The notes: generated by a model from the letters alone, not told the origin. A DNA stretch of 64,000 nt from an uncultured candidatus Brocadiaceae bacterium (GCA_964448935.1 CAYVBE010000001.1:9422-73421); one strand, 5' to 3'; positions 9,983 through 36,481 are shown, numbered from the stretch's first letter. Program-made: numbers and translations.

Positions 9983-10382
9983 GCTCTTCTCCCAAAGTGC
10001 ATATGCCGTTGTGCAAGTGAAGCCGGCCCTCCACCCCGCAGCACCGCGCCGGCATATTGTTGTACGCGTAATGCCCCGTGGCGTGGAACAGGCCGAGGTA
10101 CGCAAGGAAAGCTCACACCCGAAAGGTCCAACACCGGCAATATACCCAATTGCAGTCCCTCTGTCAAGCAAACCGGCCGGCGACATCCCCGTGTCCCTCC
10201 GGTATTTGCCACCGAGCCGGGCCCCCGATTCGGTCTATATGTGTTGGGTGGCTTGCAGCGCCGTCGGGACGCTGCTATGATGGCGTGTGCTGTTTGGCAA
10301 GATGCGGGAAGGTGCGCGCAGGAGCGGCGTGCAGGAAGTGTCCCACACCTGGATGGTTTGCACGTGTTTCCGGAGGTGTCCG

Positions 10383-11432
10383 ATGAGTGACGACGAGGCG
10401 GGCCGTGATCCGGCTGCGGTGATTGACAAAGAGGACGACATCGAGACGGTCGAAGCGCTGGGCATGGCCTACCGGAAGATGGCCGAACACCTCGGTCGTG
10501 TCATCGTCGGGCAGACAGACGTCATCGAGCAGGTGATGATCACCATGTTCTGCCGGGGGCACGCGCTGCTGGTCGGCGTGCCCGGCCTGGCGAAGACCCT
10601 GCTGGTGCGCACGCTGTCGGACCTGCTCGATCTGGAATTCAGCCGAATCCAGTTCACCCCGGACCTGATGCCCTCCGACATTACCGGCACGGACGTGCTG
10701 GAGGAGGACCGGACCTCGGGCAAGAGGTTCTTCCGCTTCGTGCACGGGCCGCTGTTCGCCAACATGATCCTGGCCGACGAGATCAACCGCACCCCGCCGA
10801 AGACCCAGGCCGCGCTGCTGCAGGCCATGCAGGAGCGGGAGGTGAGCGTGGGCGAGACGACCCACGACCTGCCCGCGCCGTTCGTGGTGCTGGCCACCCA
10901 GAACCCCATCGAGCAGGAGGGCACCTATCCACTGCCGGAGGCGCAGCTTGACCGGTTTATGCTCAAGATCATGGTAGACTACCCCGACGCCCAGGAAGAG
11001 CTGGAGATCATGAAGCAGGTGACCGGCACGATGGAGCAGCGGCTGGAGCCGATCATCGGGGGAGAGGAGATCATGCGGCTGCAGCACGTGGTGCGCCGCG
11101 TGCCGGTGGCCGAGCACGTCTTCGAGTACGCCCGCGCCCTGGTGCGTGCGTCCCGTCCCGGTGAGGAGGAGGCGCCCGATTTCGTCGAGGAACTGGTCGA
11201 ATGGGGGGCCGGACCGCGTGCGAGCATCTTCCTGATCCTCACCGCCAAGGCCCGTGCCGTGCTCCACGGCCGCTATCACGCCACCACCGAGGACGTCCGC
11301 GCCCTGGCGCCGGCCGTGCTCCGACACCGGGTCATCACCACGTTCAACGCGGAGGCGGCCGGCCTGCGCTCGGACGACGTGGTCGAGCGCCTGTTGGAAG
11401 TCGTGCCCGAGCAGGCGGAACAGATCGTCTGA
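10383..11432 (+). CDS. MoxR-family AAA+ ATPase (AAA_3)
   Basis: Walker A GVPGLAKT, Walker B ILADEINR, and ...[28 protein letters not shown], typical of MoxR/RavA-like ATPases. It is the first gene of the MoxR-DUF58-vWA operon. Confidence 0.92.
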
Positions 11433-11464: not shown

Positions 11465-12403
11465 ATGCCGGAGCAGGCCGCACCGGAGTACGCACGCCTT
11501 CTGGACCCGGACACGCTGGCCAAGGTACACCGACTGGAGCTGGTGGCGCGGGGGACGGTCGAGGGGTTCGTCAGCGGCCGCCACCAGAGCGTCTATAAGG
11601 GCGCCTCCGTCGAGTTCGCCGAGCACCGCCAGTACGTGCCCGGGGATGACGTGAAGGGCCTGGACTGGCGCGTTTACGCCAGGACCGACCGCTACTACGT
11701 GAAACAGTTCATGGAGGAGACGAACCTGCGGGCCACCATGCTGGTGGACGCCTCCGGCTCGATGGGCTACACCGGGGAGGAGGCGGCCCGGCACAACGGG
11801 ACCCGCCTCAGCAAGCTGGAATACGCCAAGTACATGGCCGCCTCGCTGATGCACATGATGATCCACCAGCAGGACGCCGTGGGGCTGGTGACCTGCGACG
11901 TGGATGTCAGGAGATACATCCCCGCCCGCAGCCGCGTCACCCACCTGCGGACGATGCTGGAGGAACTGGTCGGCACCGAACCGGGTGAGGAGACGGCCCT
12001 GGCGCCGATCTTCCACGACATCGCGGAGAGAATACACCGGCGCGGACTGGTGATCATCATATCCGACCTGTTTGACGACGCGGAGGACATCCTCAAGGCC
12101 CTGCACCATTTCCGCTACCGCAAGCACGAGGTCATCGTCTTCCACGTGATGGCCCGTGAGGAACTCACCTTCCCCTTCCGCGGGCAGGCACGCTTCCGTG
12201 ATCTGGAGGCCATGGCCCGCACGCTGCAGCTCGACGCCGGGGCGATCCGGGCCGAATACGTCGAGCGCGTGCGGGAGTTCGTGGGCCTCATGGAGCGCGG
12301 CTGCGGGCGGATGCAGGTGGATTATGTGCCCGTGTGCACGGAGGACCGCTTCGATGTCTCGTTGACCGAATACCTCGCGCGTCGGAGGCGTCGGACCAGA
12401 TGA
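11465..12403 (+). CDS. DUF58 family protein (MoxR partner)
   Basis: HRLELVARGTVEGFVSGRHQSVYKGASVEFAEHRQYVPGDDVKGLDWRVYARTDRYYVKQF is the DUF58 core. The stop overlaps the next start (ATGA at 12400-12403). Confidence 0.88.
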   Translation: MPEQAAPEYARLLDPDTLAKVHRLELVARGTVEGFVSGRHQSVYKGASVEFAEHRQYVPGDDVKGLDWRVYARTDRYYVKQFMEETNLRATMLVDASGSMGYTGEEAARHNGTRLSKLEYAKYMAASLMHMMIHQQDAVGLVTCDVDVRRYIPARSRVTHLRTMLEELVGTEPGEETALAPIFHDIAERIHRRGLVIIISDLFDDAEDILKALHHFRYRKHEVIVFHVMAREELTFPFRGQARFRDLEAMARTLQLDAGAIRAEYVERVREFVGLMERGCGRMQVDYVPVCTEDRFDVSLTEYLARRRRRTR

Positions 12404-14931
12404 CGTTTCTCAATCCCGCCATACTGATCGGACTGGTCGCGGTCTCCATACCCATCATCATCCACCTGCTGCACCGGCGCAACGCCAAGATGGTAGACTG
12501 GGCCGCGATGCGCTTTCTGCGCGACAGCCTGGCGGCGCGGAACCGGCGCATACTGCTGGAGGAGATGCTGTTGATGGCGCTGCGGTGCGTGGCGGTGGCG
12601 CTGCTTGTGATGGCGGCGGCGCGGCCGTTCCTGCCGGCGCAGTCGGCCATCCCCTGGATGGCGGTGCTGCCGGCGGCTCTGGCGGGCGCGGCGTGCGCGG
12701 GTGTGGGCACGGTCATGTGGTCGCACAGGCGGGCCGCGTGGCTGCTCATCGGGCTGGCGGTGCTGCTGCTGGGCGGCTCGGCGGGTTCCGCCGTGGCCGC
12801 GCACTTTCTGCAGGACGATCGCTGGTCTTCCGGCACGGAGGCCCGGGACATCGCCCTGGTCATTGACGGTTCCATGTCCATGTCCCTCAAGGTGGACGGG
12901 CGCACCAACTTCCAGCGCGCACTGAACGAGGCGGCGGTCCTGATCAAGCGGAGCCGGCCCGACGACGCCTTCTGCGTCATCGAGGCGGGCGCGCTGCCCA
13001 TTGCCGCCACCAGCGGCCCCATACGCGACCGCGAAAAGCTGCGGGAGGCCCTGGGCGGCCTCCAGCCCACGGGCGGCTCGATGGACCTGCTGAAGAACCT
13101 GACCTTCGCGGCCGCCAGGCTCCTGGAGGGGCAGAACCCCGGCAAGGAGATCGTGCTGCTGACCGACGGGCAGCAGGTGGGCTGGTCGCTGGACAACCGC
13201 GCGCGGTGGCAGTTCCTGGCCTCGACGCTGGACCGGTTCGGCGAACGGCCCGGGATAGTCTGTCGCACCTTCCCGCTGCCCACGGAGTGCCACAACTGTG
13301 CCGTGGGCGACGCCACGCGCTCGCGCCGCGTCGTGGGCATGGACCGGCCTGTGCACATGGGGTTCCAGGTGCTGAACGCCGGCACCGGGCGGAGCGGCCG
13401 GCTGGTGCTCAGGCTCAGCGTGGACGACGCACCGGCGCGCTCGCGCCAGCTGGCCCCCATGCGGCCGGGCGCGTCCGAGGAGATCGAGTTCGCCCATCGG
13501 TTTCTCAGGCCCGGGGCGCACGTGGTGCGCGCCGCGCTGGCCGGGCGGGACCAACTGCGGGGGGACGACGAGGCGGCGTTCGTGGTCAACGTTCTGGAAA
13601 GTCTGCCCGTGCTGATTGTCGAAGGCGCCCCGACGGGACGGCCCCTGGCCGGGGCGGCCTCGTTCATGGACGTGGCCCTGGCGCCGATGCCCGGCGAAGA
13701 GGGTGAGGAGGAGGCGGGCAGAAGGGCCGGGGAGTTCGTTGACACGACCGTGGTTCCGATCACGGAAATCGCCCGGGTCCGCAATCTGGCGGACTATTCG
13801 GTGGTCATTCTGGCCGACGTGCCCAGGCTGCCGGAGGAGACGGTCGGGCGCCTGCAGGTGTTCGTGCGCGAGGGCGGCGGCCTTCTGGTGGCGCCCGGCC
13901 GCCGGGCCGACCGCGAGTTCTACAACGGATGGCAGGTGGACGAGGGCCGGCCGATGATGCCGGCGGTCCTGGTGGAAAGAAAGGATGTCGGCGAGGACGA
14001 AGAGCCCGTCACGCCCGCTGTGAAGACCATCAGCCATCCCGCGCTTTCGCTGGTGGCCGACACCGACCGATCGGACCTGGGCTCGGCGGTCATCCGGTCC
14101 TACTGGCGGCTGCACGCGGACGAAAGCCATGGAAAGGTCATCAGGGCCGCCGCCCTGAGCAACGGGGAACCGTTCGTGATCGAGGGCAAGGTGGGCAGGG
14201 GACGGGTGCTGATGACTGCGCTGTCGCTGGACCACCGGGACAGCTCGCTGCCCACCCTGCACTGCTATGTGCCGATGGTCCATGAGCTGGTTTACCACCT
14301 GGCCGCTCCGCGGCTGCCGCAGCTCAACGTCAGCCCGGGGTCGCCGGTCAGCTTCCCGCTGTCGGAGCAGATGGCGGCCGAGGTGTTCGGGTCGGACGGG
14401 CCGTCGCAGGAGCGCTCGGTGGAGGTGCTCACGCCGTGGAACGCGGTGCGCTCCGGCGCGCTCCAGCCGGCGTCCGAGGGCTGGCGGCTGAGCTTCGCCG
14501 GCACGCGCGAGCCCGGGCTGTATCACTTCTCCTTGCCGCCTGCTCCGGGCAAGCAGAAGGCGACGCGCCTGCCGTTCACCGTGCCGCGTAAGCTGGAGGA
14601 GAGCCTGATCGCGTCGCTGTCCGAGCATGACCTGAAGATGCCGCGGGAATACGTGGAGCTGATGACGGCGGCAAGTTCGGAGGACCTGGTGGACGTCATA
14701 TCCGGAGACGTGCCCGGCCGAGAGATATGGAGGCGCCTGCTGTTCTGCGTCATCCTGGCCCTGCTGCTCGAGATCGCGCTGTCCCGGTGGATAACCCTCA
14801 CGCGCCGGACGCAACGCGTCCGGGAGGTCGAGTTCGGCCGGCAGGTGTCGGACCCGGAGACCCTCCGCGCGCGCTTCGAGCAGCAGCGCGCGGACGCCCT
14901 GGCTGAAGCGCGGGAAAGCGAAGAGAAATGA
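12400..14931 (+). CDS. BatA-type membrane protein with vWA (MIDAS) domain
   Basis: N-terminus MTFLNPAILIGLVAVSIPIIIHLL matches the aerotolerance-regulator (BatA) N-terminal motif. A vWA domain with MIDAS DGSMSMS and ...VLLTDGQQ follows. Each junction is a 4-bp ATGA overlap (12400-12403 and 14928-14931). Confidence 0.85.
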   Translation: MTFLNPAILIGLVAVSIPIIIHLLHRRNAKMVDWAAMRFLRDSLAARNRRILLEEMLLMALRCVAVALLVMAAARPFLPAQSAIPWMAVLPAALAGAACAGVGTVMWSHRRAAWLLIGLAVLLLGGSAGSAVAAHFLQDDRWSSGTEARDIALVIDGSMSMSLKVDGRTNFQRALNEAAVLIKRSRPDDAFCVIEAGALPIAATSGPIRDREKLREALGGLQPTGGSMDLLKNLTFAAARLLEGQNPGKEIVLLTDGQQVGWSLDNRARWQFLASTLDRFGERPGIVCRTFPLPTECHNCAVGDATRSRRVVGMDRPVHMGFQVLNAGTGRSGRLVLRLSVDDAPARSRQLAPMRPGASEEIEFAHRFLRPGAHVVRAALAGRDQLRGDDEAAFVVNVLESLPVLIVEGAPTGRPLAGAASFMDVALAPMPGEEGEEEAGRRAGEFVDTTVVPITEIARVRNLADYSVVILADVPRLPEETVGRLQVFVREGGGLLVAPGRRADREFYNGWQVDEGRPMMPAVLVERKDVGEDEEPVTPAVKTISHPALSLVADTDRSDLGSAVIRSYWRLHADESHGKVIRAAALSNGEPFVIEGKVGRGRVLMTALSLDHRDSSLPTLHCYVPMVHELVYHLAAPRLPQLNVSPGSPVSFPLSEQMAAEVFGSDGPSQERSVEVLTPWNAVRSGALQPASEGWRLSFAGTREPGLYHFSLPPAPGKQKATRLPFTVPRKLEESLIASLSEHDLKMPREYVELMTAASSEDLVDVISGDVPGREIWRRLLFCVILALLLEIALSRWITLTRRTQRVREVEFGRQVSDPETLRARFEQQRADALAEARESEEK

Positions 14932-17900
14932 CCTTAGCCGCAATAGATCAGACGCTGCTTCCGGCGGGCATCCCGGCGCCGCTCGTGTGGCTCGGGGCGG
15001 TCGTGGTGGCGGGCGCCTGGTACCGATCGCACCGGTCGCTGCGCCCGGAGGGCGGGCCGTGGTGGCGGGCGGGCCTGTTTGTGGCGGCCAGATTCCTGAT
15101 CGGCTCGGCGGCCCTGCTGCTGATACTGGAAGGGATCGGGCGGCTGGGCGTGTTTTCCCTGGTCACCAACCTGCCGCTGTGGGCGTTTTGCCCGCTCGGA
15201 GCGGCGGGGGTGGAGGGCGTGGTGCTGCTGTACCGGGCGGAGCGCAGCCGCGTCTCGCCCACGGCGGGCCGGCTGCTCATGGCGCTCCGGGTGGTGCTGC
15301 TACTTCTGGTAATACTGATGCTGGCGCAGCCGGTGTTCGTGGAGGAGAACAGCCGCGAGTTGAAACGCACCGTGGCCGTGCTGCTGGACGATTCGCTGTC
15401 CATGCAGGTTCCCGATACTCACCTGGCGCCGTGGGAGAAGGTGCGGCTGGTGGAGGCCCTCGGGGCGTTGCCGGCCGAGCGGCCGGTGCAGTTGGAGGAG
15501 GTGCAGTGGGTGCTGGGAGAGCTGGCGGACCGAGTGGCCACCCAGGCCGAGTGGCTGGGTATGGCGGGCGGCCTGAAGCCCGAGGTGTTGGTGGAGCACC
15601 TGCGCGACCGCGCGAAGGACCTTCGCACCACGATCGCCGACGTGCGTCGGGAACTGCGCGCCCAGGGCGACAGGCTGTCGAAGGCATCGGAGACCGCTCA
15701 GTCCGCCGGGGACGAGATCAGGGCGTCGCTGAAGACTCTCGCCGAGGGGATGGAGCAGCAGGTCCACGCGCTCCTGGAGGCGGCAAAGGACCTGCTGTCC
15801 CGAGAGCCGGCGGAACTGGCCAGGCGCCACACGGAGCTTCTGCAGAAGCTGCAGAGCGCCGCCATCGCGCTGGACGCCCTGGCACAGCAGGTGAAGGGCC
15901 ATGCGCGAGAGGTGGACGCCGCCTTCTACGCGGCCCTGCCGGCCGAGCAGCGCGAAGCGGTGGACAGCATGGCGGGAATGACCCGCCTGCAACTGGCTCG
16001 GCGCCTGCTGCTGCCGCAGGAGGACGGCGAAACGGACGAGGCAAAGGCGGAGACACTCCTCGACCTGGTGGTGCCGCAGTACGGGCTCAAGGCGTACCGC
16101 TTCGCGGAGGAGGCGACGGAGATGCGGCTGCACCGCCCCGCCGAGGGTGAGGGCGATGGGGAGGACTCACCGGAAGCGCCCCGGACGCTGGAGGCGGGAC
16201 GGGCGGACAGCACGGATTTCGCGGCCGCCGTTGACCGGGTGCTCAGGGACCTGCCGGCGGAGAGGCTGGCGGGGATCATGTTCCTGACCGACGGCCGCCA
16301 CAACGCGTCCGCTTCGGCCGAAGCGGCGGCCCGGCAGGCGGGAACGGCGGGCCTGCGCATCCTGCCCGTGATGTTCGGCGCGACGGCCCCGCCACGTGAC
16401 GCGGCGGTGGTCAGCCTGGACGTGCCGGACGTCGTGTATGAGAAGGACACCGTGTACATCGGGGCCGATGTGAAGCTGGATGGGCTGGCCGGAAAGACGG
16501 CCACGTTGACCCTCCGGCGGACAGGGGAGGAGCAACCGCTGGCGACAAGGACCATAGACGTCGTGCGTGACCGGCACCGCGAAAAGGTGGAACTGAGCTA
16601 CACCCCGGAGGAGGCCGGAATACAGAATTTCGAAGTGGCGCTGAACACCTTCGAGGACGAGGTGTTCAAGGACAACAACCGCTGGCCGCTCAGCGTGCGG
16701 GTGAGCGAGGATAAGACCAGGCTGCTGGTTATCGAGGGCTACCCGCGCTGGGAATTCCGCTACCTGAAGAATCTGTTCGCGAACCGTGACCAGTCGGTCC
16801 ATCTGCAGTACGTGCTGTTCCGGCGGGACAAGGTCGGCGGCACCCAAGAGCTGCCCGAGATACCGGCCTCGGCCACGCGCGAGGAGGCCCAGGCCACCGC
16901 GCTGCCCCGCGACGAGATGGAGTGGCTAAAGTTCGACGTTATTGTCCTGGGCGACGTGCCGCCGGACCAGTTCGATGCCGCGGACCTGGATGCGCTGCGG
17001 CGTTTCGTGGAGGACCGGGGCGGCGTGCTCGTGGTCTTAGCCGGGCCCCGACACATGCCGCACGATTACACCGGCACGGTGCTGGAGAGCATCGTGCCCG
17101 TCCGCATAGACCGCAGCCAAGAGAAGGACGTTCTGGACGTTGCGGACAAGGGATATCACATCCGCCTCAGCCCAGAAGGGCGGCAGAGCGTCGTCATGCG
17201 CCAGAGCCTGAACCCGGAGGCGAACCTGGAGACCTGGCGCGGCTTCCCGCCGATCTACTGGCGCCATCCGCTGGTGAGCGCCAAACCCGGCGCCCGGGTC
17301 CTGGGATACGCCGTCGAGGCGACGGACGATGAGGATGAGTTGGCGGACGCAGGCGCGGACAATCCGGGCCACACGCCCGTGCTGGCCAGAGAAGCGCCGC
17401 TGATTCTGCTGCAACAGGTTTCTCTGGGACGGGTTATGATGCTGTGCTTCGACCGCACCTGGCGGCTGCGCTACCGCGCCGGGGACGAACACCACCACAA
17501 ATTCTGGGGCCAGGTCATGCGCTGGGCGACCGCCGGCAAGCTGGCCGCCGGAACGAACCTGGTCAAGCTGGGAACGGACAGGGCGCGCTACGCCCCCGGC
17601 TCCACGGTCACGGTGCGGGCCAGGATATTGGAGACCGACCTGTCGCCCGTCGCGAATGCCGAGGTAGCGGTCAACGTCTACCGGGGCGAGGAGCTGACGG
17701 AGCGGAAGGTGCTGCAGTACCTGTCGGACTCGCCCGGCATCTACGAGTGCCAGTTGGAGGCACCCCGTTCCGGGTCCTACCGTGTGGAACTCGATGCGCC
17801 GCGCGCGCGGTCCATACTGGCCTCGGAGGGCGCGGAGCAGGTGGTGGCGGAGTTTGCGGTGGACCCGGCCATGTCGCCGGAGAAGGTGGAACTGAGTCCG

Positions 17901-18116
17901 GACGGGGCGCTGTTGGAGCGGCTGGCGGAGTTGAGCGGGGGGGACGTGGCGGCTCCCTGGGAAGTGGGCCGTCTCCTTGAGCTTCTGGCTCCCAGCGTCT
18001 ATGTTCAAGAGGAGCGGCGCGAATATCCTCTGTGGAATTCCTGGCCGTTCTTGCTCGCCATTATAGGGGTCGCCACGGCGGAATGGCTGCTTCGTAGAAG
18101 GAGCGCGTTACCATGA
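14928..18116 (+). CDS. large multi-pass membrane protein of the BatA-like operon (degenerate vWA end motif plus glutamine-amidotransferase-like/DUF4159-like region)
   Basis: About four N-terminal TM helices. The segment GIMFLTDGRHNAS resembles a vWA C-terminal motif. ...LLVIEGYPRWEFRYLKNLF...VIVLGDVPPDQFDAADLDALRRFVEDRGGVLVVLAG matches the class-I GATase-like fold seen in BatA-operon partners. It is translationally coupled on both sides. Confidence 0.7.
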   Translation: MTLAAIDQTLLPAGIPAPLVWLGAVVVAGAWYRSHRSLRPEGGPWWRAGLFVAARFLIGSAALLLILEGIGRLGVFSLVTNLPLWAFCPLGAAGVEGVVLLYRAERSRVSPTAGRLLMALRVVLLLLVILMLAQPVFVEENSRELKRTVAVLLDDSLSMQVPDTHLAPWEKVRLVEALGALPAERPVQLEEVQWVLGELADRVATQAEWLGMAGGLKPEVLVEHLRDRAKDLRTTIADVRRELRAQGDRLSKASETAQSAGDEIRASLKTLAEGMEQQVHALLEAAKDLLSREPAELARRHTELLQKLQSAAIALDALAQQVKGHAREVDAAFYAALPAEQREAVDSMAGMTRLQLARRLLLPQEDGETDEAKAETLLDLVVPQYGLKAYRFAEEATEMRLHRPAEGEGDGEDSPEAPRTLEAGRADSTDFAAAVDRVLRDLPAERLAGIMFLTDGRHNASASAEAAARQAGTAGLRILPVMFGATAPPRDAAVVSLDVPDVVYEKDTVYIGADVKLDGLAGKTATLTLRRTGEEQPLATRTIDVVRDRHREKVELSYTPEEAGIQNFEVALNTFEDEVFKDNNRWPLSVRVSEDKTRLLVIEGYPRWEFRYLKNLFANRDQSVHLQYVLFRRDKVGGTQELPEIPASATREEAQATALPRDEMEWLKFDVIVLGDVPPDQFDAADLDALRRFVEDRGGVLVVLAGPRHMPHDYTGTVLESIVPVRIDRSQEKDVLDVADKGYHIRLSPEGRQSVVMRQSLNPEANLETWRGFPPIYWRHPLVSAKPGARVLGYAVEATDDEDELADAGADNPGHTPVLAREAPLILLQQVSLGRVMMLCFDRTWRLRYRAGDEHHHKFWGQVMRWATAGKLAAGTNLVKLGTDRARYAPGSTVTVRARILETDLSPVANAEVAVNVYRGEELTERKVLQYLSDSPGIYECQLEAPRSGSYRVELDAPRARSILASEGAEQVVAEFAVDPAMSPEKVELSPDGALLERLAELSGGDVAAPWEVGRLLELLAPSVYVQEERREYPLWNSWPFLLAIIGVATAEWLLRRRSALP

Positions 18117-21100
18117 CCAGCGAAGCTGTTTCTGGGCCGGAAAGCACTGTCCCACGCACCATCGTCAGCGTGCTCAGAAGCGTTATCCGCCGCGTGCGAT
18201 TCGTCATCGGACTGCGTGGCGTCTGCGTCGTCGCAACGGCCACACTGGCGGCCCTGCTGATCGTGATGGCCGTTGACCGGTCCATCGTGATCCTCGCGCA
18301 GTGGCCCCGGTGGATTCTGTCCCTCTGGGTGCTGGCCGTGGCGATCGGCAGCGCCGTGTTCTTCCTGATACGTCCCCTGGCGCATAGCTTCACCCTGCCC
18401 GGCATAGCGCGGGCGCTGGAGCTGCGCCACCCGGAGCTGCACGAACGCATAAGCTCCGCGGTGGAGCTGCTGGGAAGCCACGACCGGCCCGAGGTGCGGG
18501 GGTCGGAGGCGCTGATCGCCGCTCTGGCGGAGGAGGCCAGCCGGGACGTCAGGGAGCTTCGGCCCTCCCGCGAGGTCACCTTTCGGGCGGCGCGGCCTTT
18601 CCTGCTGGCCATGGCCGGGGCCCTGGCTATCATCGTCGGACTTCTGGCGTACTGGCCGGACCAGACGCGCCGGCTGCTGGCGCGCGCCGTGGCACCCTTC
18701 GCCAACCTGCCCAACGTCGCCGCCTATCAGTTGTCCGTGAGACCCGGCGACACCGTCAGCCTGCCGGATGACGCCGTCCGCGTCGAGTTGGCGGTGTGCA
18801 ACGACAGGGTCAACAAGGCCGTTCTGTACAGGGTGAGCCCGGATGGGCAGAGAGTGCGGTCCAATATGACCCGCATCGCGGACGGCGAGGAGGGGGCGCG
18901 GCGCTTCACGGTGACCTGTCCGCCCGCCCGCGCGGACTACCGCTACCGCGTCCGTGCGGCGGACGCCCTCAGCCGCTACTACAAGGTGCGCGTGGTGCCG
19001 CCGCCCGCCGTGGAGGGGCTGACGGTGCGCTACGACTATCCCGAATACGTCGGGCTGGAGCCGCGGGTCGTTGGGGGTTCGGACGGCGAGATAGAGGCCG
19101 TCGAGGGCAGCCGCGTGACCGTGACCGCCGCGCTGAACAAGACCGTCAGTAAGGCGTTGCTGATGGTGGATGACTGGAAGGAGCCGGTGGCTGGGGGAAC
19201 CGTGAAAGAGGACAGAGACGGCCGGGTGGCCTGCACGTTCGCCTTCGAATTGATGCCGGGGGTGGACGGCTCCTGGCGTATGGAAATCGCGGACGAGCAC
19301 GGCTTCCGGAACGATCAGACCGAGTATCCCATCCGCGCCCTGCCGGACACCGCCCCCACGGTGCGCGTCGGGCACCCTGAGAAGAGGCGCATACGCTGCC
19401 GGCCCTCGGACCGCCTGCCGGTTACCTACGCGGCCGTGGACGATTTTGGACTGGGCAACATAGAGCTTCTGCTGAAGGCCGACGACGGCAAAGTGAGGTC
19501 CCGCGTGCTGCCGTTGCCCGAGGAGGACAGGGGACCGCCGCTCGGGACGAGCGGTCGAGAGACGCTGGATTTCGCCTCGCGGGCGTTCGAGGGCGTGTCA
19601 AAGCTGGAATTCCAGGTTGCCGCGCAGGACAGGCTGCCGGCGGAAGACGACGGTCCGCAGGAGGGGCTGTCCAGGGTGTTCACCGTGATTCTGCAGCGGG
19701 AGGCGCCATCCTATACCTCGCAGTTGTGGCAGGAGATATACCGCGAGATGAGCGTCGGCCTGGAGGAGGTGCTCGAGGAGCTGAAGGCGGCCAAAGAGCA
19801 ATCCGCCGAGGCCCGCAAGTCTATGGCCGAAGAGTCCGAGGAGGCGGCGCAGAAGGCCGTGGAGAAGATGAATGAACTGAGCGAGCATCTGACCGATGCA
19901 GACTCCACTGCCCGCGAACTGGCGGCCGAGATGCAGCCCGGTCCGTATCAGAGCGTGGCGGAGCGGCTGGAAGACGTGGCCGACGAGCACATCACCCCCG
20001 CCGGCGAAGCGGCGGACGAGATGAAGCTGAACGAGGATGCTGAACAGCGCGGCGAGCTGGCCGACGAGGTGGACACGCACGTGGACGGCGCGATCGCGGC
20101 CATCGAGGAGATGCAGCAGGACGTGGAAGCCCTCACCGAGATGGGGGAGCGGCTGGAACGCCTGACGGAACTCACAGAGCGGGAGAAGGAGCTTGCACAG
20201 GCGCTGGAGGAAATGAGGGAAGATGCCGCTCAGGCTGCGATGTCGGAGGAGGGCTGGGAAGAGGCCCAGAGGGGACTGACCGATGAGGTGGGTCGCCTGC
20301 TGGAGGAGACCCCCGGCGGCCTGCAGGCCCAGGCCACACAGGACAGGCAGAGACTGAGCGACTACGCCGAAGAGGCGAAGCGCCTGAGCGAGCAGCAGGG
20401 GTCCCTGGCTGAAGATGCACAGCACGAGAGCGAACTGGCCGAGGTCGAGAAGGCGTTGGACGAGCTCGCCGAGAAGCAGCAGAAGCTGGCCGAGGATACC
20501 GGCGGGGAGAAACTGACGCGGGACCTGAAGCCACCGATGTCGGAGGTCTCGGACCGGATCAAGCAGCGCGAACTGGAGCAGGCCCAGGAGGGACAGAAGG
20601 AGGCGGAGAAGGAGCTGCGAAACCGGGCAGACGCGCTCCAGCGCGAGCAGAAGACCGAGGACCTGCTGCCGGACACGAAGAAGTTGGCTGAGGAGCAGCG
20701 GCACCTGGCGGACAAGGTCCAGAAGCTCCGGGACACCGCCGAACAGGTGGACGTTGCGAAAAAGGCCAAACCCCAGGCGGACAGGCTGGGGCGAGAGCAG
20801 GAGCAGCTCGCCCGGCGAGCCAAAAACCTGGAGGACAACGTGGCCAAAAACGAGGCCGCCGCGAAGCAGGGCAAGGCCAAACCGTCACAGGAGATGGACG
20901 CCGCCGCCCGGGAACTCAAGCAGGGCAAGGCGCAGGAAGCCTCTGCGGCTGCGCAGAAGGCGGCCGAAAAGGCGGAGGAGTTGACCCGACAGCTCCGCGA
21001 GGCTCAGAAGGCGGAGGGCGCCCAAGGCGTGGACAATTTGGCCAGAGAGGCCGACCGTATCGCCGATGCCCAGGCCAAACTGGCGAAGGAGATGGCGAAA

Positions 21101-22732
21101 TTGCCGGAGGGGCTAAAGGAGGAATTTGCCGCCCCGCAGGCCACGGCGCAGAAGAAAAGTGAAGCGATAGAGTCCGCGCGCGGTCTCGCAGAGCCCCAGC
21201 AGGCGCTGCGCGAGCAGATGGAGAAGGCGCGCCGGGAGTACAACCAGGCCACGCCGGAGGCTCGCAAGGCGTTTCACGACAAGGCGCCGATCTGGCACAC
21301 CGACCAGGTGAAGAAGTCGCTCCAGCGTGGCAAGCTGGAGGATGCCGCTTCACGGGCGCAGGAGTCTGCTGAGCGCCTGGAGCAGGCGGCTGAGGAGGTC
21401 GGCGAGCAGGCGGAGCAGATGGAGGAAGTTGCCGACAGGCCGAAGAAGGCCGAGGAGGTCGGCCACCTGGCGGAGCAGCAGGAGGAGCTGCGCAGGGAGC
21501 TGGCCGAGCTGAGCGAGAGGCGCGAACGGCTCCGTGAGAACCTGCGCGACCGGCAGTTGGAATGGCTGAAGGCCGAGCAGGCAGCGGTGGCGGAGGAGAC
21601 CGCGAAGCTGGCCTACCGCGCGCAGAACGTCTCGCTACAGGAGGACGGCCTGGAGCGTAACGCCTCGCGCGCGGCCGCCCGCGCCTCGCGTCAGATCGAG
21701 TCCCTGCAGATGCACGAAGCGTCCGATAGCGCCGACCAGGCGGCCCGAGACCTGGATGAGCTGGCGGAGCGATTCGAGGAGAAGGCGGAAGCCATGGCGG
21801 AAGCGGCCCTCGATGAGGCCGCCCCCGACCAGGAGTCCGCTGCGGCGCGAGTCGAGGATACCGCCCGGCACCGTGAGATAGCCGAACAGAGCGCCGCGCT
21901 GGCGGCGCGCGAAGAGGCGGTGGCCCAGGGGCTGGAGGCGCTGGCCGGCGAGCAGCACCCGGCCGTCACGCAGGCCGCGCAGCAGGAGATGACCCGCCGT
22001 GCCCGGACGCTGCAGCAGGGCGCGCAGGGAGTGCGGGACCGCCTGGCCCAGAGTTTCCCGGAGCACAGGGCGCACCAGCAGGCCGCCGAAGGCACGGAGC
22101 GGCTGGAGCAGGCCGCCGAAGCGGCCGAGCAGGCCGAGGATTTCCTGGGCCGGGAGCAGCCCGCCGAGGCCTTGCCCCAACAGCAGCAGGCATCCGACCA
22201 CCTGCAGGCCGCCGCCCGGGCGCTGGAGGATGCGGCGCGTCAATACGACCGCGCGCTGGCCGCTGCCGAAACGCCCGATCTGGCCGCAGCTGCCGCGGAG
22301 GATAGCCAGCCCCTTGCCGCCGCCTATGACGATGCCCACCAGGCGGCGCTCTCGGCGCAGGAGCTGGACACGGCACTGGCTGCCCAACGGCTTGAAGCCG
22401 CTCGGGCGCGCGCTGCCGCGCGGGCGCAACGGATGGACATTGCGCCGTTCTCGCTGTCGCAGCAGAACCTGCCGCAGATGGCGATGAGTCAGGCCGCCGA
22501 CCCTGAAACCGGCATCAAGGCCGTGCCGGCCGAGCAGACGGTGGCGAAGCTGCAGCGTGCCGGCATTGATCTGGATGACTGGGGCCGGCTGCCCAGCCAG
22601 CTTCGCAACGACATCCTGCAGGCGCCCGAGGAGAAGAGCCCCCGGGAGTATCGGGAACTGATCCGACGGTACTTCCGCGAGATCGCCCGCCGGGGGGCCG
22701 AGGAACCGGAGGGCAGGGAGCAAGAGGAATGA
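18113..22732 (+). CDS. 1539-aa membrane-anchored protein with about 1000-aa Ala/Glu/Gln/Lys-rich coiled-coil region (possibly DUF4175-like)
   Basis: N-terminal TM segments. The mid region is beta-rich. Residues from about 520 to the C-terminus are heptad-like low complexity (AEELTRQLREAQKAEGAQ..., EQAAEEVGEQAEQMEE...). ATGA overlaps with both neighbours (18113-18116, 22729-22732). Confidence 0.7.
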   Translation: MTSEAVSGPESTVPRTIVSVLRSVIRRVRFVIGLRGVCVVATATLAALLIVMAVDRSIVILAQWPRWILSLWVLAVAIGSAVFFLIRPLAHSFTLPGIARALELRHPELHERISSAVELLGSHDRPEVRGSEALIAALAEEASRDVRELRPSREVTFRAARPFLLAMAGALAIIVGLLAYWPDQTRRLLARAVAPFANLPNVAAYQLSVRPGDTVSLPDDAVRVELAVCNDRVNKAVLYRVSPDGQRVRSNMTRIADGEEGARRFTVTCPPARADYRYRVRAADALSRYYKVRVVPPPAVEGLTVRYDYPEYVGLEPRVVGGSDGEIEAVEGSRVTVTAALNKTVSKALLMVDDWKEPVAGGTVKEDRDGRVACTFAFELMPGVDGSWRMEIADEHGFRNDQTEYPIRALPDTAPTVRVGHPEKRRIRCRPSDRLPVTYAAVDDFGLGNIELLLKADDGKVRSRVLPLPEEDRGPPLGTSGRETLDFASRAFEGVSKLEFQVAAQDRLPAEDDGPQEGLSRVFTVILQREAPSYTSQLWQEIYREMSVGLEEVLEELKAAKEQSAEARKSMAEESEEAAQKAVEKMNELSEHLTDADSTARELAAEMQPGPYQSVAERLEDVADEHITPAGEAADEMKLNEDAEQRGELADEVDTHVDGAIAAIEEMQQDVEALTEMGERLERLTELTEREKELAQALEEMREDAAQAAMSEEGWEEAQRGLTDEVGRLLEETPGGLQAQATQDRQRLSDYAEEAKRLSEQQGSLAEDAQHESELAEVEKALDELAEKQQKLAEDTGGEKLTRDLKPPMSEVSDRIKQRELEQAQEGQKEAEKELRNRADALQREQKTEDLLPDTKKLAEEQRHLADKVQKLRDTAEQVDVAKKAKPQADRLGREQEQLARRAKNLEDNVAKNEAAAKQGKAKPSQEMDAAARELKQGKAQEASAAAQKAAEKAEELTRQLREAQKAEGAQGVDNLAREADRIADAQAKLAKEMAKLPEGLKEEFAAPQATAQKKSEAIESARGLAEPQQALREQMEKARREYNQATPEARKAFHDKAPIWHTDQVKKSLQRGKLEDAASRAQESAERLEQAAEEVGEQAEQMEEVADRPKKAEEVGHLAEQQEELRRELAELSERRERLRENLRDRQLEWLKAEQAAVAEETAKLAYRAQNVSLQEDGLERNASRAAARASRQIESLQMHEASDSADQAARDLDELAERFEEKAEAMAEAALDEAAPDQESAAARVEDTARHREIAEQSAALAAREEAVAQGLEALAGEQHPAVTQAAQQEMTRRARTLQQGAQGVRDRLAQSFPEHRAHQQAAEGTERLEQAAEAAEQAEDFLGREQPAEALPQQQQASDHLQAAARALEDAARQYDRALAAAETPDLAAAAAEDSQPLAAAYDDAHQAALSAQELDTALAAQRLEAARARAAARAQRMDIAPFSLSQQNLPQMAMSQAADPETGIKAVPAEQTVAKLQRAGIDLDDWGRLPSQLRNDILQAPEEKSPREYRELIRRYFREIARRGAEEPEGREQEE
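19690..22700 (+). repeat. protein-level low-complexity/coiled-coil coding region (A/E/Q/K/R/L rich)
   Basis: About 3 kb of coding sequence that translates to continuous charged, Ala-rich heptad-like sequence. There are no exact DNA repeats, only compositional periodicity. Confidence 0.6.
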
Positions 22733-23790
22733 GTTTTCTGTGGCATTACAGTAAGTACGCGGCCTGCGTCGGCGTGGCTTTTGCCGCGCTCCTGGCGCTG
22801 GGGGCCGGCGAGCCGGCGCCGGACGAGGACTCCCTGAAGCAATACGAGGAAAAGACCGACCGGGCCGTTGATCTGGGCCTGAAGTTCCTGGCCTCACAGC
22901 AGCAGAACGACGGCGCCTTCCGGGGCAAATGGACCCACAACACCGGCATTGCTTCACTCTGCGTGATGGCGTTCCTCGCCGGGGGCTACACGCCGGGCAC
23001 CGGTCCGCACGGGGAGACCATCAACAAGGGCATTGATTACGTGCTGAGCGCCCAGAACAAGGACGGCATGATCCTGGGGCGCCAGAAGAGCCACGGGGGC
23101 ATGTACAGCCACTCCATCTCCACTCTGCTGCTCTCCGAGGTGTCGGGCATGGTGGATGGGGAGCGGCAGAAGAAGATTGACGAAGCATTGCCCAGGGCTC
23201 TGCACATCATCCTGTCGGCGCAGAAACTCGACAAGAACAATCGGTTCGACGGCGGGTGGCGCTATAACTCCAACAGCCGCGACAGCGACATCTCCTGCAC
23301 CGGCTGGCCTTTGATGGCGCTGCGGTCGGCGCGCAACAACGGCGCAGCGGTCCCGAAGGACGCCATCGAGAACGGCCTGAAATTCGTGCTGAACTGCCGC
23401 AGCGGTGATGGCGGGTTCGCCTATCAGCCGGGCAGAGGTTCGGGAGTGGCCAGGACGGGCACCGCGCTGCTGTGCCTTGAGCTCTGTGGCATGCACGAGA
23501 GCAAGGAGGCGCAAGGGGCGGCCGAATACCTGCTCAAACACGGGCACGACAATAGCTGGTTCTACTACGGCATCTACTACTGCGCGCAGGGCATGTACCA
23601 GCTCGGCGGCCGCTACTGGCAGGAGTACGGCCCGTCCATCTTCAAGACGCTTCTGGACAGGCAGAACGATGAGGGCTCCTGGCCGGACAACTCGGGCGGC
23701 GGGGGCCGCGCCGGCAAGAGCTACTCCACCGCCATGTCCGTCCTCGCCCTCAGCGTTCCCTACTGCCAGTTGCCCATCTACCAGCGCTGA
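22729..23790 (+). CDS. secreted prenyltransferase/squalene-oxidase (terpene-cyclase-like alpha/alpha-toroid) repeat protein, paralog 1
   Basis: Signal peptide, then repeated QxxDGGF/GGW motifs (QQQNDGAFRG, SAQNKDGMILG, NRFDGGWRYN, RSGDGGFAYQ, RQNDEGSWPD) characteristic of the SQHop-cyclase/prenyltransferase repeat fold. It is the last, translationally coupled gene of the MoxR/BatA operon. Confidence 0.8.
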   Translation: MSFLWHYSKYAACVGVAFAALLALGAGEPAPDEDSLKQYEEKTDRAVDLGLKFLASQQQNDGAFRGKWTHNTGIASLCVMAFLAGGYTPGTGPHGETINKGIDYVLSAQNKDGMILGRQKSHGGMYSHSISTLLLSEVSGMVDGERQKKIDEALPRALHIILSAQKLDKNNRFDGGWRYNSNSRDSDISCTGWPLMALRSARNNGAAVPKDAIENGLKFVLNCRSGDGGFAYQPGRGSGVARTGTALLCLELCGMHESKEAQGAAEYLLKHGHDNSWFYYGIYYCAQGMYQLGGRYWQEYGPSIFKTLLDRQNDEGSWPDNSGGGGRAGKSYSTAMSVLALSVPYCQLPIYQR

Positions 23791-23800
23791 CGGGGCCCGG

Positions 23801-24565
23801 TCAGCCGGTCGGATAGCCCGCCTTGCTCAGGATGCCGGCCACCGAACGGCTGGCGGGGGAGTCCTCGGGCAATTCCAGCAGGGACCGGCCCTCCCAGTCG
23901 AACTGCGGCACGGCTTCGTCCGCCTCGACGCGTCCCAGGAAGGTCGCCCCGTCCGGGCTCTCCACCCGGTCTTCCATCTCCGGCGTAAACCGGTAGTTTC
24001 CGACCAGATACATGTTCTCGAACCTTACCCCGATCTCGTCGGCAATCTCGATCAGGCGGCGGGCGTTGCGCACGGCCTTGGCGCTGGGGTCTATCATCAC
24101 GAACATGTCCTTCACGTCCCGCACCACGCGGCGGTTCACGTGTTCCAGTCCCGCCGGGGAGTCCAGGAGGGCGTAATCATAGTTCTTCGCCAGTGTCGGC
24201 AGCAGGCCCTGCAGGATATTGTTCGGCTGGCAGTAGCAGCCGCGGGTCCACTTGACCCCCAGCGTCACCAGATCGAACCCTTCGGCTTCGTACAGGCAGT
24301 CCATGCCGACCAGATACTCCATCTTCTGCGCCAGCGGCATCGAGCCCAGCTCCTCGTAGGCGTCCGGCTTCTGCAGCTTGTAGAGCACATCCGAGATGGT
24401 GTTGATCCCCTGTTCCTGAAGGTCCACGCCCAGCAGTTGCGCCAGGCTCTGGTCCGGGTCGGCGTCTATCAGCAGCGGCGCCGGGGGCAGGTGCCGCACG
24501 GCCAGCGCCGCGAAGGTGCTCTTGCCGGCTCCGCCCCGGCCGGTCACTACGGTCATCTTGGCCAT
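23801..24565 (-). CDS. CooC/AcsF-like MinD-family ATPase (CXC nickel-insertion accessory family)
   Basis: Deviant Walker A VTGRGGAGKST. The conserved CXC motif (TRGCYCQPNN) is typical of CO-dehydrogenase maturation factor CooC. GGAGGAcgtg precedes the ATG at 24565. Confidence 0.7.
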   Translation of the reverse strand: MAKMTVVTGRGGAGKSTFAALAVRHLPPAPLLIDADPDQSLAQLLGVDLQEQGINTISDVLYKLQKPDAYEELGSMPLAQKMEYLVGMDCLYEAEGFDLVTLGVKWTRGCYCQPNNILQGLLPTLAKNYDYALLDSPAGLEHVNRRVVRDVKDMFVMIDPSAKAVRNARRLIEIADEIGVRFENMYLVGNYRFTPEMEDRVESPDGATFLGRVEADEAVPQFDWEGRSLLELPEDSPASRSVAGILSKAGYPTG

Positions 24566-24600
24566 CACGTCCTCCGTGTTCTGCGGTTCCTTGTCTTACG

Positions 24601-25953
24601 TCACTTTTGCCCCGCTGCTGCAACGGTCTGTAGCTGCTCGTGCTCGAACTTGTGCGCCCGGCGGTTCTCCTCCTCCGGGTCGCATATCCGCCGCAGCTCC
24701 GCCTCCAACTCCTCGGCAATCTCCGGACGCGTTCCGTAAGCGTTCTCCAACTCCTCGGGGTCCTCCCGCAGGTTGAACAGCAGGTGGGGCGCCTCAATGC
24801 AGTATATCAGTTTCCAATCGCCTTTGCGGACCATATAGGCGCCGGAGCGCGTGCCGTGGCCGTGGTATTCGCAGAACGCCACGGACTCGGGGTCCCCCGC
24901 ACGGTCGCTCAAGGGCGTGCCGCGCCATTTCTCCGGCCTGTGGGCGTCGAAGATGCGGAACAGCTCCGCCTGCAGGTCCAGCAGTCCCACCGGGCTGCCC
25001 ACCCGTTCTCCGGCGTCGAAATCCGGCCCGCGCGCAATCAGCGGGACGCGCGCGGAGTCCTCGTACAGGCTGCACTTCCACCACATGCCGAACTTGCCCA
25101 GCATCTCCCCGTGGTCGGTGGTGTAAACAACGTTCGTTTTGCCGCCGAGTCCGGACTCCTCAAGGGCCTCCATCACGCGGCCCACCTGGCGGTCCACGAA
25201 GGTAACGCACCCCAGGTAGCCGCACCTCAGTCCGCGTATCTGCTCGTCGCTGAAATGGTCCGTCTCGAAGTGGTCGCGCAGGTCACGCGCGTAGGCATGG
25301 TTGGCCGAGGCGCACTCGCCCCCGTGCGCCGGCAGGTCGCCGTGCCCTTCGTAGAGGTCCCATAGCTCCTGCGTCACGTAGTGCGGAAAATGCGGCTTGC
25401 CCGTGTTCACCACCAGCAGCCAGGGCCTGTCCAGCCCGGGCGCCGTTTGGTTAAGCCACTCCACCGCTGCGTCCACACGTCGAAGGTCGCCGCCAAACGG
25501 GTCTTCGCGCGGCCCGAAGCCGTCGGCCCGGCCGGCGGAGCCCTCCCGGATGGAAAGGGGAGTGCGCCCGTGATTCGTGTCCCCCGGCCAGCCGCGGTCC
25601 CCGGGCAGGATCATTTCCGAGAAGCCCAGGTTCTCGCCGCGGTCGTACACGTCCACCTTGCCGATGTAGGCGGTATGGACACCTTGCTCCGCCAGCACAC
25701 GACCGTAGCTCGGCAGGTCTGATCTCAGGTTCACGGTGCAATTACTGTAAGTCTGCGTCTCGTGCACGTAGCGCCCGCTCATGAACGAGGAGCGGCTGGG
25801 CAGACAGAGGGGCGACTGGCAGTAGGCGTTCTCGTAAACCGTCCCCGAATCCGCCAGCCGCTGCAGATTGGGCGTCACCACGTCCTCGTGCCCGTAAGGA
25901 CTGCTGAAGCGCGGGTTGTGCTCGTCCGACATGAAAACCACAACGTTGCTCAA
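24601..25953 (-). CDS. arylsulfatase-family sulfatase, no signal peptide (predicted cytoplasmic)
   Basis: VVFMSDEHNP...CQSPLCLPSRSSFMSGRY carries the CxPxR formylglycine motif, with the full sulfatase fold downstream. The likely start is the TTG at 25953, preceded by GGGAGGAGGA-cgcacc. No hydrophobic leader is present. Confidence 0.85.
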   Translation of the reverse strand: MSNVVVFMSDEHNPRFSSPYGHEDVVTPNLQRLADSGTVYENAYCQSPLCLPSRSSFMSGRYVHETQTYSNCTVNLRSDLPSYGRVLAEQGVHTAYIGKVDVYDRGENLGFSEMILPGDRGWPGDTNHGRTPLSIREGSAGRADGFGPREDPFGGDLRRVDAAVEWLNQTAPGLDRPWLLVVNTGKPHFPHYVTQELWDLYEGHGDLPAHGGECASANHAYARDLRDHFETDHFSDEQIRGLRCGYLGCVTFVDRQVGRVMEALEESGLGGKTNVVYTTDHGEMLGKFGMWWKCSLYEDSARVPLIARGPDFDAGERVGSPVGLLDLQAELFRIFDAHRPEKWRGTPLSDRAGDPESVAFCEYHGHGTRSGAYMVRKGDWKLIYCIEAPHLLFNLREDPEELENAYGTRPEIAEELEAELRRICDPEEENRRAHKFEHEQLQTVAAAGQK

Positions 25954-26406
25954 GGTGCGTCCTCCTCCCGTGTCAGGAAAAGTACAGCATAAGGGCGCAG
26001 CGCCGCCGCCGCAACGGGGCCGCCCTTCGGGCGGCGAGGAAGAATGCGCTGCATTCTTCACTGCGTTGGGTTGCAGACGTTGGCGTTCAAGCCGAAAACG
26101 GCCTCAGGCGAGGGCGCCTGAGGTAAACGAGGTCCCTGCGGCGGACACGGTTGGTGTGTGGCGCAGCCGCCCTCGGCGGCAGTCGTTGCCGTCCCGTCCG
26201 TGTTTGTCCGTGTGGCGTCATTCCGCTGTGGAGCGGAATTGTGCGTTTGTGCGCCACCCGACCGTGATGTAGAATCACGCCAGCGAAAAACGAGGCTCAA
26301 AGGTATCCTGGTGTTGGCCGCGATCATCGTTCCGTTTGTGGCATCCGCTTTGAGGCTGGTCGTCATACTGCACGCGGTGTGCTCTGGCATCACGGGAGAA
26401 AACGAC

Positions 26407-36354: not shown

Positions 36355-36481
36355 CGGCGCGAACAAAACCGGGATTCAGGACCACTAAGTCCTGTGAAGA
36401 TTGCCTGAGAAGAGGTGTGCCATCCGCAAGCGACCGTCGGTCATCGCTCGCATGTGCCATACAAAGCGCAGAAAGGGAGTT

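Follow-up and report, generated by a model that had tools for sequence, protein, structure and literature searches.

A DUF4175-family membrane protein with a predicted modular helical rod in a Bat/MoxR-type operon of a candidatus Brocadiaceae bacterium

A stretch of 64,000 nucleotides from an uncultured candidatus Brocadiaceae bacterium (GCA_964448935.1 CAYVBE010000001.1:9422-73421; hereafter the window, with positions counted from its first letter) carries on its + strand, at 18113..22732, the gene of a membrane protein of 1539 residues (ATG to stop) that belongs to the DUF4175 family. Taken together, the observations are best explained if, within an envelope complex of the Bat/MoxR type, this protein forms a modular arm in the periplasm and presents a conserved C-terminal docking motif. 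We put the probability of this reading, including its inferred function, at about 55%. The family assignment and the architecture are very probable: an Arg-rich N-terminal tail is followed by a hairpin of two transmembrane helices (TM1 and TM2), a loop, a third helix (TM3), three immunoglobulin (Ig)-like domains, a long helical rod, a linker and a C-terminal motif. The open reading frame (ORF) is a genuine, conserved gene. An identical protein is deposited at NCBI (P0039), relatives are found at 93% and 62% identity, and a scan with one genome per species located genes for related proteins at 149 loci. The genome has a GC content of 66%.

The helical rod and its repeats

The all-alpha rod comprises residues 534-1440 (19712..22432) and is rich in A, E, Q, K, R and L (A 21%, D+E 22%, Q 10%, K+R 14%), with a net charge of -82. 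Strong hydrophobic residues account for 17% of it, versus 24% in a tropomyosin control. Between residues 540 and 1480 lie 26 Pro and 33 Gly that can break a helix, and the Pro-free runs in this region have a median of 32 and a maximum of 127 residues. A simple heptad scan was made, scoring the hydrophobic occupancy of positions a and d in the best register of 28-residue windows. The a/d periodicity of the rod exceeds that of shuffled sequences (z 8.7-10.9). Its mean occupancy is 0.42, or 0.54 when Ala is given half weight; tropomyosin reaches 0.57 and 0.71, respectively. Tropomyosin-like windows in a single register cover 219 of the 941 residues (23%), in runs of at most 60 residues with register shifts in between.

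The rod was modelled with AlphaFold2 (AF2) from an alignment of 50 sequences, as part of residues 521-1539. The mean predicted local distance difference test (pLDDT) of this model is 89.3, with values of at least 90 at 743 of the 1019 residues, and its predicted template modelling score (pTM) is 0.66. From residue 534 to 1440 the model consists of 29 helical segments (89% helix; median 24 residues, longest 92) separated by 28 breaks; the prediction contains neither beta nor other non-helical globular domains. A Pro or Gly lies in the loop or in the first helical turn at 21 of these breaks; conversely, loops or first turns hold 16 of the 22 Pro of the rod. Since the pTM is high and the turns are tight, the short helices are expected to pack intramolecularly, giving a rod of bundles and not a filament of 140 nm. 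On the basis of the model, the rod is thus predicted to consist of some 29 short helices joined by turns and not to be a continuous coiled coil.

Structure comparison by Foldseek gave no global match of the rod in the PDB (best E 8.6e-3), the weak global matches being Umb1, MukB and PrgA (E 0.009-0.7). Locally, the rod resembles up-down four-helix bundles, such as neoleukins, designed bundles and the ligand-binding domain of Tar, with target-normalised TM-scores of 0.56-0.76. The family profile retrieved only weak matches among PDB sequences (E of at least 1e-4), namely designed single-chain antiparallel four-helix bundles, F-BAR and IncA. These profile matches were taken as compositional or as hints at a fold class, and not as homology.

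The homologue P0036, which is 58% identical over the rod, differs by a single one-residue indel in 907 residues, while three relatives of 1524-1544 residues with 32-35% rod identity have 4-9 small indels each. So few indels at 32-58% identity point to a folded domain, the length of which is conserved inside the subclade of the target. Conserved columns and repeat motifs are found all along the rod. Neither the continuous register and virtual absence of Pro and Gly that characterize a canonical long coiled coil, nor the low order and free indel turnover of an intrinsically disordered tail, are therefore found here; the latter description fits only residues ~1441-1472.

Self-comparison of the tail by BLAST revealed no internal repeats, whether or not composition was corrected for. 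Repeats were found by profile-profile comparison (hhalign), in which 120-residue windows of a 32-sequence family alignment were compared pairwise: 16 of 78 non-overlapping window pairs exceed a probability of 80% (maximum 95.5%, score 50), with 60-100 aligned columns at offsets of about 100-135 residues or multiples thereof. With the columns of one window reversed, the probability never rose above 2.9% or the score above 18. A repeat hidden Markov model (HMM), seeded with residues 1148-1282 and iterated on the family, recognizes 162 domains in 59 proteins versus one in the same proteins reversed. In the target it finds four copies, at residues 774-879 (20432..20749; i-E 2e-9, also by hhalign), 888-1038 (20774..21226; 4e-15), 1024-1145 (21182..21547; 2e-14) and 1148-1280, the seed unit, likewise seen by hhalign (21554..21952). 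Profile comparison relates residues 681-771 and 1282-1372 to these units as well, raising the number to about six. One unit corresponds to approximately four helices of the AF2 model, and long helices of 61, 62, 92 and 65 residues seem to bridge neighbouring units. The rod is accordingly predicted to be built from tandem helical-bundle modules of ~100-135 (about 125) residues. At the DNA level, a weak tandem repeat lies within copy 3 (21392-21487, + strand; period 30 nucleotides, 3.2 copies, 67% matches); it encodes EEVGEQAEQM / EEVADRPKKA / EEVGHLAEQQ, a small local duplication.

The rod is followed by a predicted disordered linker (residues ~1441-1472; 22433..22528) with Pro, Gln, Ser and Met and a pLDDT of 37-53. 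Except for the extreme termini, this is the only part of the rod model in which the pLDDT drops below 50. Beyond it, the alignment of homologues delineates a conserved C-terminal motif of ~45 residues, DLDDWGRLPSQLRNDILQAPEEKSPREYRELIRRYFREIARRG (22529..22702), with the pattern DW.RLP..LR..ILQ....P.EYR.LI.RYF and with D1489, W1490, L1493, P1494, L1497, Y1513, R1514, Y1520 and F1521 as invariant residues. It occurs once in the window.

A preliminary description of this region had proposed a membrane-anchored protein with an uninterrupted coiled coil of 1000 residues. The ORF and transmembrane-type helices at its N-terminus are indeed present, although the anchor consists of three helices instead of one. 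The E/A/Q/K/R/L-rich composition is borne out for residues ~534-1440, and so is the absence of globular interruptions, in view of 89% helix without a beta or non-helical globular domain in the AF2 model. A continuous heptad pattern, however, does not agree with 26 Pro, 33 Gly, 29 helices and single-register runs that do not exceed 60 residues. The likeness to golgins and myosin tails has to be abandoned in favour of a chain of short helices built from ~100-135-residue modules, with compact pieces resembling four-helix bundles. Nor does the helical part extend to the C-terminus, as had been thought, since it gives way to the disordered linker and then to the conserved motif.

The N-terminal half, topology and family membership

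The N-terminal half was modelled with AF2 for residues 1-570 from 62 sequences (pLDDT 87.5). TM1 (residues ~37-57) and TM2 (64-90) form a hairpin (18221..18382), recognized from hydropathy and from the AF2 helices 15-57 and 64-90. They are connected by ~8 residues devoid of charge, and an Arg-rich tail precedes TM1. Between TM2 and TM3 lies a helical loop of ~66 residues (18383..18580), predicted to be cytoplasmic, which shows the strongest conservation in the whole protein: A99, H106-P107-E108-L109, E111-R112, S114-S115 and G130-S131 are invariant, giving the motif HPELxERISS. TM3 (residues 157-181; 18581..18655), again apparent from hydropathy and the AF2 model, is followed by three tandem Ig-like beta-sandwich domains (residues ~207-294, 300-410 and 416-527; 18710..19702). 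These are modelled with a pLDDT of ~90 and match tandem-Ig ectodomains with E-values of 4e-12 to 1e-7 (Foldseek).

Among the 62 homologues, the 15 residues preceding TM1 contain on average 5.4 Lys+Arg, versus 0.16 in the TM1-TM2 loop. From this positive-inside statistic, the N-terminal tail and the TM2-TM3 loop are predicted to be cytoplasmic and everything after TM3 periplasmic; because the number of transmembrane helices is odd, the C-terminal part lies on the opposite side from the N-terminal tail. The Ig-like domains and the signal-like N-terminus of the product of operon gene 6 also back this topology. For BB0173 of Borrelia, the observed topology is compatible with a periplasm-facing VWA domain of a BatA-type protein (PMC5700661). 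A periplasmic location of the region after TM3 is likely.

Residues 1-540 alone match Pfam DUF4175 (PF13779) with 33.4 bits (cut-off 27.3; E 1.7e-8), residues 307-527 aligning with profile positions 190-392. The homologues P0036, P0024, P0030 and P0091 score 35-48 bits against this model, and many homologues are named "DUF4175 family protein" at NCBI. The layout is also that of the family, with N-terminal transmembrane helices, here three, followed by an A/E/Q-rich helical region of ~900 residues. The protein is a further member of a known, uncharacterised family and not a new kind of protein. A literature search yielded a single mention of DUF4175, for AdvA of A. baumannii, a small division protein reported to carry a DUF4175 domain along with two predicted transmembrane helices, which was judged uninformative.

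The family is large: when 1.84 billion cluster representatives were searched with the profile, 16,638 matched with an E-value of 1e-3 or lower and 4,470 with one of 1e-30 or lower, the latter being a count of representatives at 50% identity. In 50 complete homologues from the PVC (Planctomycetes-Verrucomicrobia-Chlamydiae) group, the region between the Ig-like domains and the C-terminal motif measures 582-3071 residues (median 880), and its composition ranges over 14-32% A, 8-25% Q, 2-10% P and 2-13% G. The number of detected repeats rises with length, from one in proteins of ~1170-1210 residues to 4-5 in those of 1600-1725 residues (Spearman 0.47, p 4e-4), and between lineages length changes in large blocks, as with indels of 36-91 residues in two homologues. 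Rod length thus appears to vary between lineages by whole modules and disordered inserts, and to be nearly constant in the subclade of the target. The longest homologue, of verrucomicrobial origin (L080:9908-20869), reaches 3653 residues with a middle region of ~3070 residues. In another locus (L027:9968-15022) the DUF4175 ORF runs on into the downstream alpha/alpha-toroid gene, which may reflect a fusion or a frameshift. Many homologous genes (loci L005, L010, L043, L057 and L063) end at contig breaks that fall inside short low-complexity tandem repeats (QAAGEPG, GGEQAGGQQA, PEPGDDPEGT, GDKPAP and KDGKG); the variable part of DUF4175 genes seems to break metagenome assemblies, so that database copies are often partial.

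With 4,470 representatives at E<=1e-30, rarity among bacteria, which the preliminary description had assumed, does not apply to this family. The variability in homologue length that this description had looked for is wide. The tail is not disordered (pLDDT 89; one indel in 907 residues at 58% rod identity) and homologues do carry it, and since neither finding speaks against an elongated spacer or tether, this remains a reasonable idea. Membership of DUF4175, the three Ig-like domains and the conserved MoxR/DUF58/BatA operon are additions to that description. The parallel it drew with the tail of ribosomal protein S2 is compositional only, the S2 tail being acidic, Pro-containing and typical of disorder and the rod being structured. 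S2 itself (9119-10186, - strand; Pfam E 6e-79) ends in ~57 Glu/Ala/Pro-rich residues, GPRQAPEEEAQPAEEAEAEEAPADEE..., that look disordered; the ORF as listed has ~76 surplus N-terminal residues, the true start probably being further downstream.

The operon and a possible role of the protein

The DUF4175 gene (18113-22732) is the fifth of six genes on the + strand; its neighbours were assigned with Pfam and NCBIfam. Gene 1 (10287..11432) encodes a MoxR-type AAA+ ATPase (AAA_3) and gene 2 (11465..12403) a DUF58 (VWA-like) protein, both without transmembrane segments. Gene 3 (12334..14931, with ATG 12400 as the likely true start) specifies a membrane protein with a BatA N-terminal double-transmembrane region and a VWA domain, and gene 4 (14928..18116) a 1062-residue protein with multiple transmembrane segments, one of them C-terminal, and a weak MG2-like domain. 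The product of gene 6 (22729..23790), 353 residues long, is an alpha/alpha toroid resembling prenyltransferases and squalene cyclases, with an N-terminal signal-like hydrophobic segment. From gene 2 onwards, adjacent genes overlap by four nucleotides. The start ATG of the DUF4175 gene shares an ATGA with the upstream stop codon (18113-18116; ccATGAcc) and its stop shares one with the downstream ATG (22729-22732; gaATGAgt); the coordinates imply similar overlaps at 14928-14931 and, provided that the BatA gene starts at ATG 12400, at 12400-12403. These overlaps suggest translational coupling from the DUF58 gene through the alpha/alpha-toroid gene.

Genes 1, 2, 3, 4 and 6 recur in the same order in 54, 58, 65, 71 and 57, respectively, of 80 related loci from metagenome-assembled genomes of Planctomycetota, Verrucomicrobiota and Lentisphaerota, many of the loci being truncated at contig ends. 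MoxR, DUF58 and BatA/VWA genes on one strand constitute the core of a Bat operon; no Pfam match to TPR (BatC/BatE) or BatD was obtained in the six operon proteins. Neither did these proteins match any PADLOC defence-system model, and a conflict or anti-phage system, including MoxR-vWA, was rejected as an interpretation on this ground.

A tblastn search against plasmids gave one distant match, a cluster on plasmid 1 of Gemmatirosa kalamazoonensis (L081, NZ_CP007129.1 728960-747463) with MoxR, DUF58, BatA/VWA/GATase1-like and DUF4175-like genes. The DUF4175-like protein has 1268 residues and, across 458 aligned positions of the N-terminal region, shares 25.5% identity with the target (E 8e-8). 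It possesses a related loop and a C-terminal PxYRxLVxxYF motif, and one of its helical stretches is recognized by the repeat HMM as well as by the C-terminal part of Pfam DUF4175. It also contains poly-Gly and (GGQQS)n tracts, and the cluster is followed by a MacB/FtsX-type ABC permease. As a cultured strain of the Gemmatimonadota, G. kalamazoonensis could be an experimental model.

Some observations concern the partner proteins and the wider surroundings. The thioester domain of alpha2-macroglobulins belongs to the alpha/alpha-toroid fold class. The co-occurrence of a weak MG2 (alpha2-macroglobulin) domain in gene 4 and a toroid in gene 6 is a curious pairing, possibly a coincidence, that raised the idea of a split alpha2-macroglobulin; inspection of gene 6 by eye revealed no CGEQ thioester motif. 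Just downstream, two genes lie on the opposite (-) strand, one at 23801-24568 for a ParA/MinD-like P-loop ATPase and one at 24601-26061 for a sulfatase, an enzyme class typical of planctomycete genomes. Farther on, an ORF of 1924 residues (36401-42175, + strand) lies in a GC dip (55-59% vs ~66% around it) and has only weak Pfam matches, to fn3 and Big_5; it may encode a giant surface protein gained by horizontal transfer. It is followed by a gene for a PDZ-domain protein (42180-43178). No tRNA or Rfam RNA was found in the 64-kb window.

With respect to function, we propose that everything past TM3 would be periplasmic and that the rod would be a modular, semi-rigid arm, with a length of ~30-70 nm that varies with the type of its units (4-, 3- or 2-helix bundles). 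The arm would keep the C-terminal motif off the inner membrane, enabling the motif to dock with a partner that lies within the complex or in an outer layer of the envelope. On the cytoplasmic side, the HPELxERISS loop would be the likely contact for MoxR and DUF58, acting as a chaperone module in assembly or remodelling of the complex. Besides this cytoplasmic AAA+ chaperone pair, the operon would supply one secreted and three large inner-membrane proteins, while the number of repeats and lineage-specific inserts would set the length of the arm. More tentatively, the protein might serve as arm or tether in a complex that maintains envelope integrity. The MoxR protein RL3499 of R. leguminosarum is described as having importance for the integrity of the membrane and for cell morphology (PMC3893208; cited in PMC5700661), and in Rb. 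sphaeroides the TIGR02302 gene RSP_0730 and a MoxR gene belong, alongside tolQRAB, to the direct, positively regulated part of the CenKR cell-envelope regulon (PMC9275681).

Several points weigh against this proposal. Bundle packing and arm length are read solely from secondary structure, pTM and local Foldseek matches. Lys+Arg barely declines across TM3 (2.9 before, 2.3 after it in the 62 homologues), and with such nearly equal values on either side it is chiefly the TM1-TM2 hairpin that supports the topology. For the C-terminal motif the pLDDT is no more than moderate (58-69), as is expected for a segment that folds on its partner, and this docking partner is putative. As regards the family, no Pfam or NCBIfam match was reported for the full-length protein, PF13779 probably being missed because of the bias correction triggered by the tail; neither the whole protein nor three segments of it matched TIGR02302, even at E<=1, the segments yielding NCBIfam noise only. 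Finally, many homologues have low-complexity Gly/Gln/Pro tandem inserts in the rod region, which argues against a strictly rigid arm across the family.

Other explanations of the tail have been considered. A single continuous, parallel homo-oligomeric coiled coil of ~1000 residues, functioning as a ruler or tethering filament of ~140 nm, would account for the coiled-coil-like composition, the a/d periodicity (z 8.7-10.9), several stretches of 30-60 residues with good heptads and the weak global matches to the long coiled-coil proteins Umb1, MukB and PrgA. It is nevertheless highly improbable, given the 26 Pro and 33 Gly with a median Pro-free run of 32 residues, the register changes and the mere 23% of residues in tropomyosin-like windows, as well as the 29 helices with tight turns (pLDDT 89) and a pTM of 0.66 that signal intramolecular packing; internal repeats of ~125 residues, moreover, suit bundle modules. 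At the other extreme, the tail could be a disordered, acidic low-complexity spacer or entropic bristle, in which sequence is unimportant and Ala and Glu result from high GC. The hypervariable length (582-3071 residues), the tandem inserts GGQQAGGEQA, QAAGEPG, PEPGDDPEGT and KDGKG in homologues, the net charge of -82, the absence of self-similarity by BLAST and the 66% GC of the genome are in line with such a spacer. It is improbable in the face of a pLDDT of at least 90 at 743 of 1019 residues, with low values only at residues ~1441-1472 and the extreme termini, of one indel per 907 residues at 58% identity and 4-9 small ones at 32-35%, and of conserved columns and repeat motifs throughout the rod.

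A different objection concerns the side of the membrane. EzrA is a membrane-anchored protein with spectrin-like repeats in the bacterial cytoplasm, and by this precedent the Ig-like domains and the rod could be cytoplasmic too, as a spectrin-type scaffold working with MoxR and DUF58. These two proteins have neither transmembrane segments nor signal peptides, and the Lys+Arg density past TM3 is not low. Such an inverted topology is nonetheless fairly unlikely: positive charge is strong ahead of TM1 and absent from the TM1-TM2 loop in the 62 homologues, the number of transmembrane helices is odd, tandem Ig-like domains are typically extracytoplasmic, gene 6 has its signal-like N-terminus and the BB0173 VWA domain is compatible with the periplasm (PMC5700661). 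The periplasmic arm could also be conceived more boldly, as a spectrin-like strut, tuned in length by its repeat number, that spans or measures the distance from the inner membrane to an outer layer and is assembled or tensioned by MoxR/DUF58 through HPELxERISS. This version is unlikely; the near invariance of rod length in the subclade at 32-58% identity and the block changes between lineages would be hints for it. If true, the strut would be an unrecognised, widespread machine for envelope spacing or integrity (4,470 clusters at E<=1e-30), most elaborate in the PVC group with its unusual envelopes.

Comparison with known systems

DUF4175 together with MoxR, DUF58 and BatA is among the larger conserved bacterial neighbourhoods still without a mechanism. 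The Bat genes of Bacteroides are known for aerotolerance phenotypes. Functional hints are confined to these and, in alphaproteobacteria, to defects in envelope integrity and morphology or membership of an envelope regulon. The proposed periplasmic modular arm gives a very widespread operon, so far vaguely annotated, an architecture that can be tested, in which the supposedly low-complexity tail appears, on the basis of the models, as a confidently folded, repeat-built helical rod with a conserved loop at one end and a tethered motif at the other.

As in other DUF4175 (PF13779) proteins, N-terminal transmembrane helices, a beta-rich region and a long helical or low-complexity C-terminal part are combined with an association with MoxR, DUF58 and BatA. 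The PVC branch differs in its greater length (1170-3653 residues) and in two extra conserved partners, the 1062-residue membrane protein and the alpha/alpha toroid. TIGR02302 represents the alphaproteobacterial branch of DUF4175 and is not matched by the target. The MoxR AAA_3, DUF58 and BatA-N/VWA core is shared with the Bat/MoxR-DUF58-VWA operons bb0170-0176 of Borrelia and RL3499-RL3502 of R. leguminosarum, whereas the Bat operons of Bacteroides differ by TPR (BatC/BatE) and BatD proteins, for which there was no match here. Envelope or stress phenotypes are described for relatives with Bat/MoxR operons (PMC5700661, PMC3893208).

Golgins, myosin tails and tropomyosin resemble the rod in being charged, Ala-rich and highly helical, but they are essentially free of Pro and keep a continuous register, while the rod falls into 29 helices. 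Before long helical stretches rich in Ala, Glu and Gln are labelled as coiled coils in high-GC bacteria, they need to be checked for Pro and Gly and for repeats. By analogy and not by homology, spectrin rods and EzrA offer a parallel, with tandem helical modules of ~100-130 residues, helices that seem to cross module borders and an anchored rod. Unlike these, the target has no match to Pfam spectrin (PF00435), about four helices per unit instead of three (~106 residues), and a predicted periplasmic instead of cytoplasmic location. With TolA, and more loosely with TonB and Lpp, it would have in common an anchor in the inner membrane, a long periplasmic domain that is helical and rich in Ala, Glu and Lys and, at the C-terminus, a small conserved element for docking, and with TolA also the link to an energy-using inner-membrane or cytoplasmic module. 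There is, however, no match to TolA in sequence or fold; the anchor comprises three transmembrane helices and Ig-like domains, the repeat-built rod is longer by a factor of 4-5, and a MoxR AAA+ ATPase would serve as energy module in place of a proton-driven stator.

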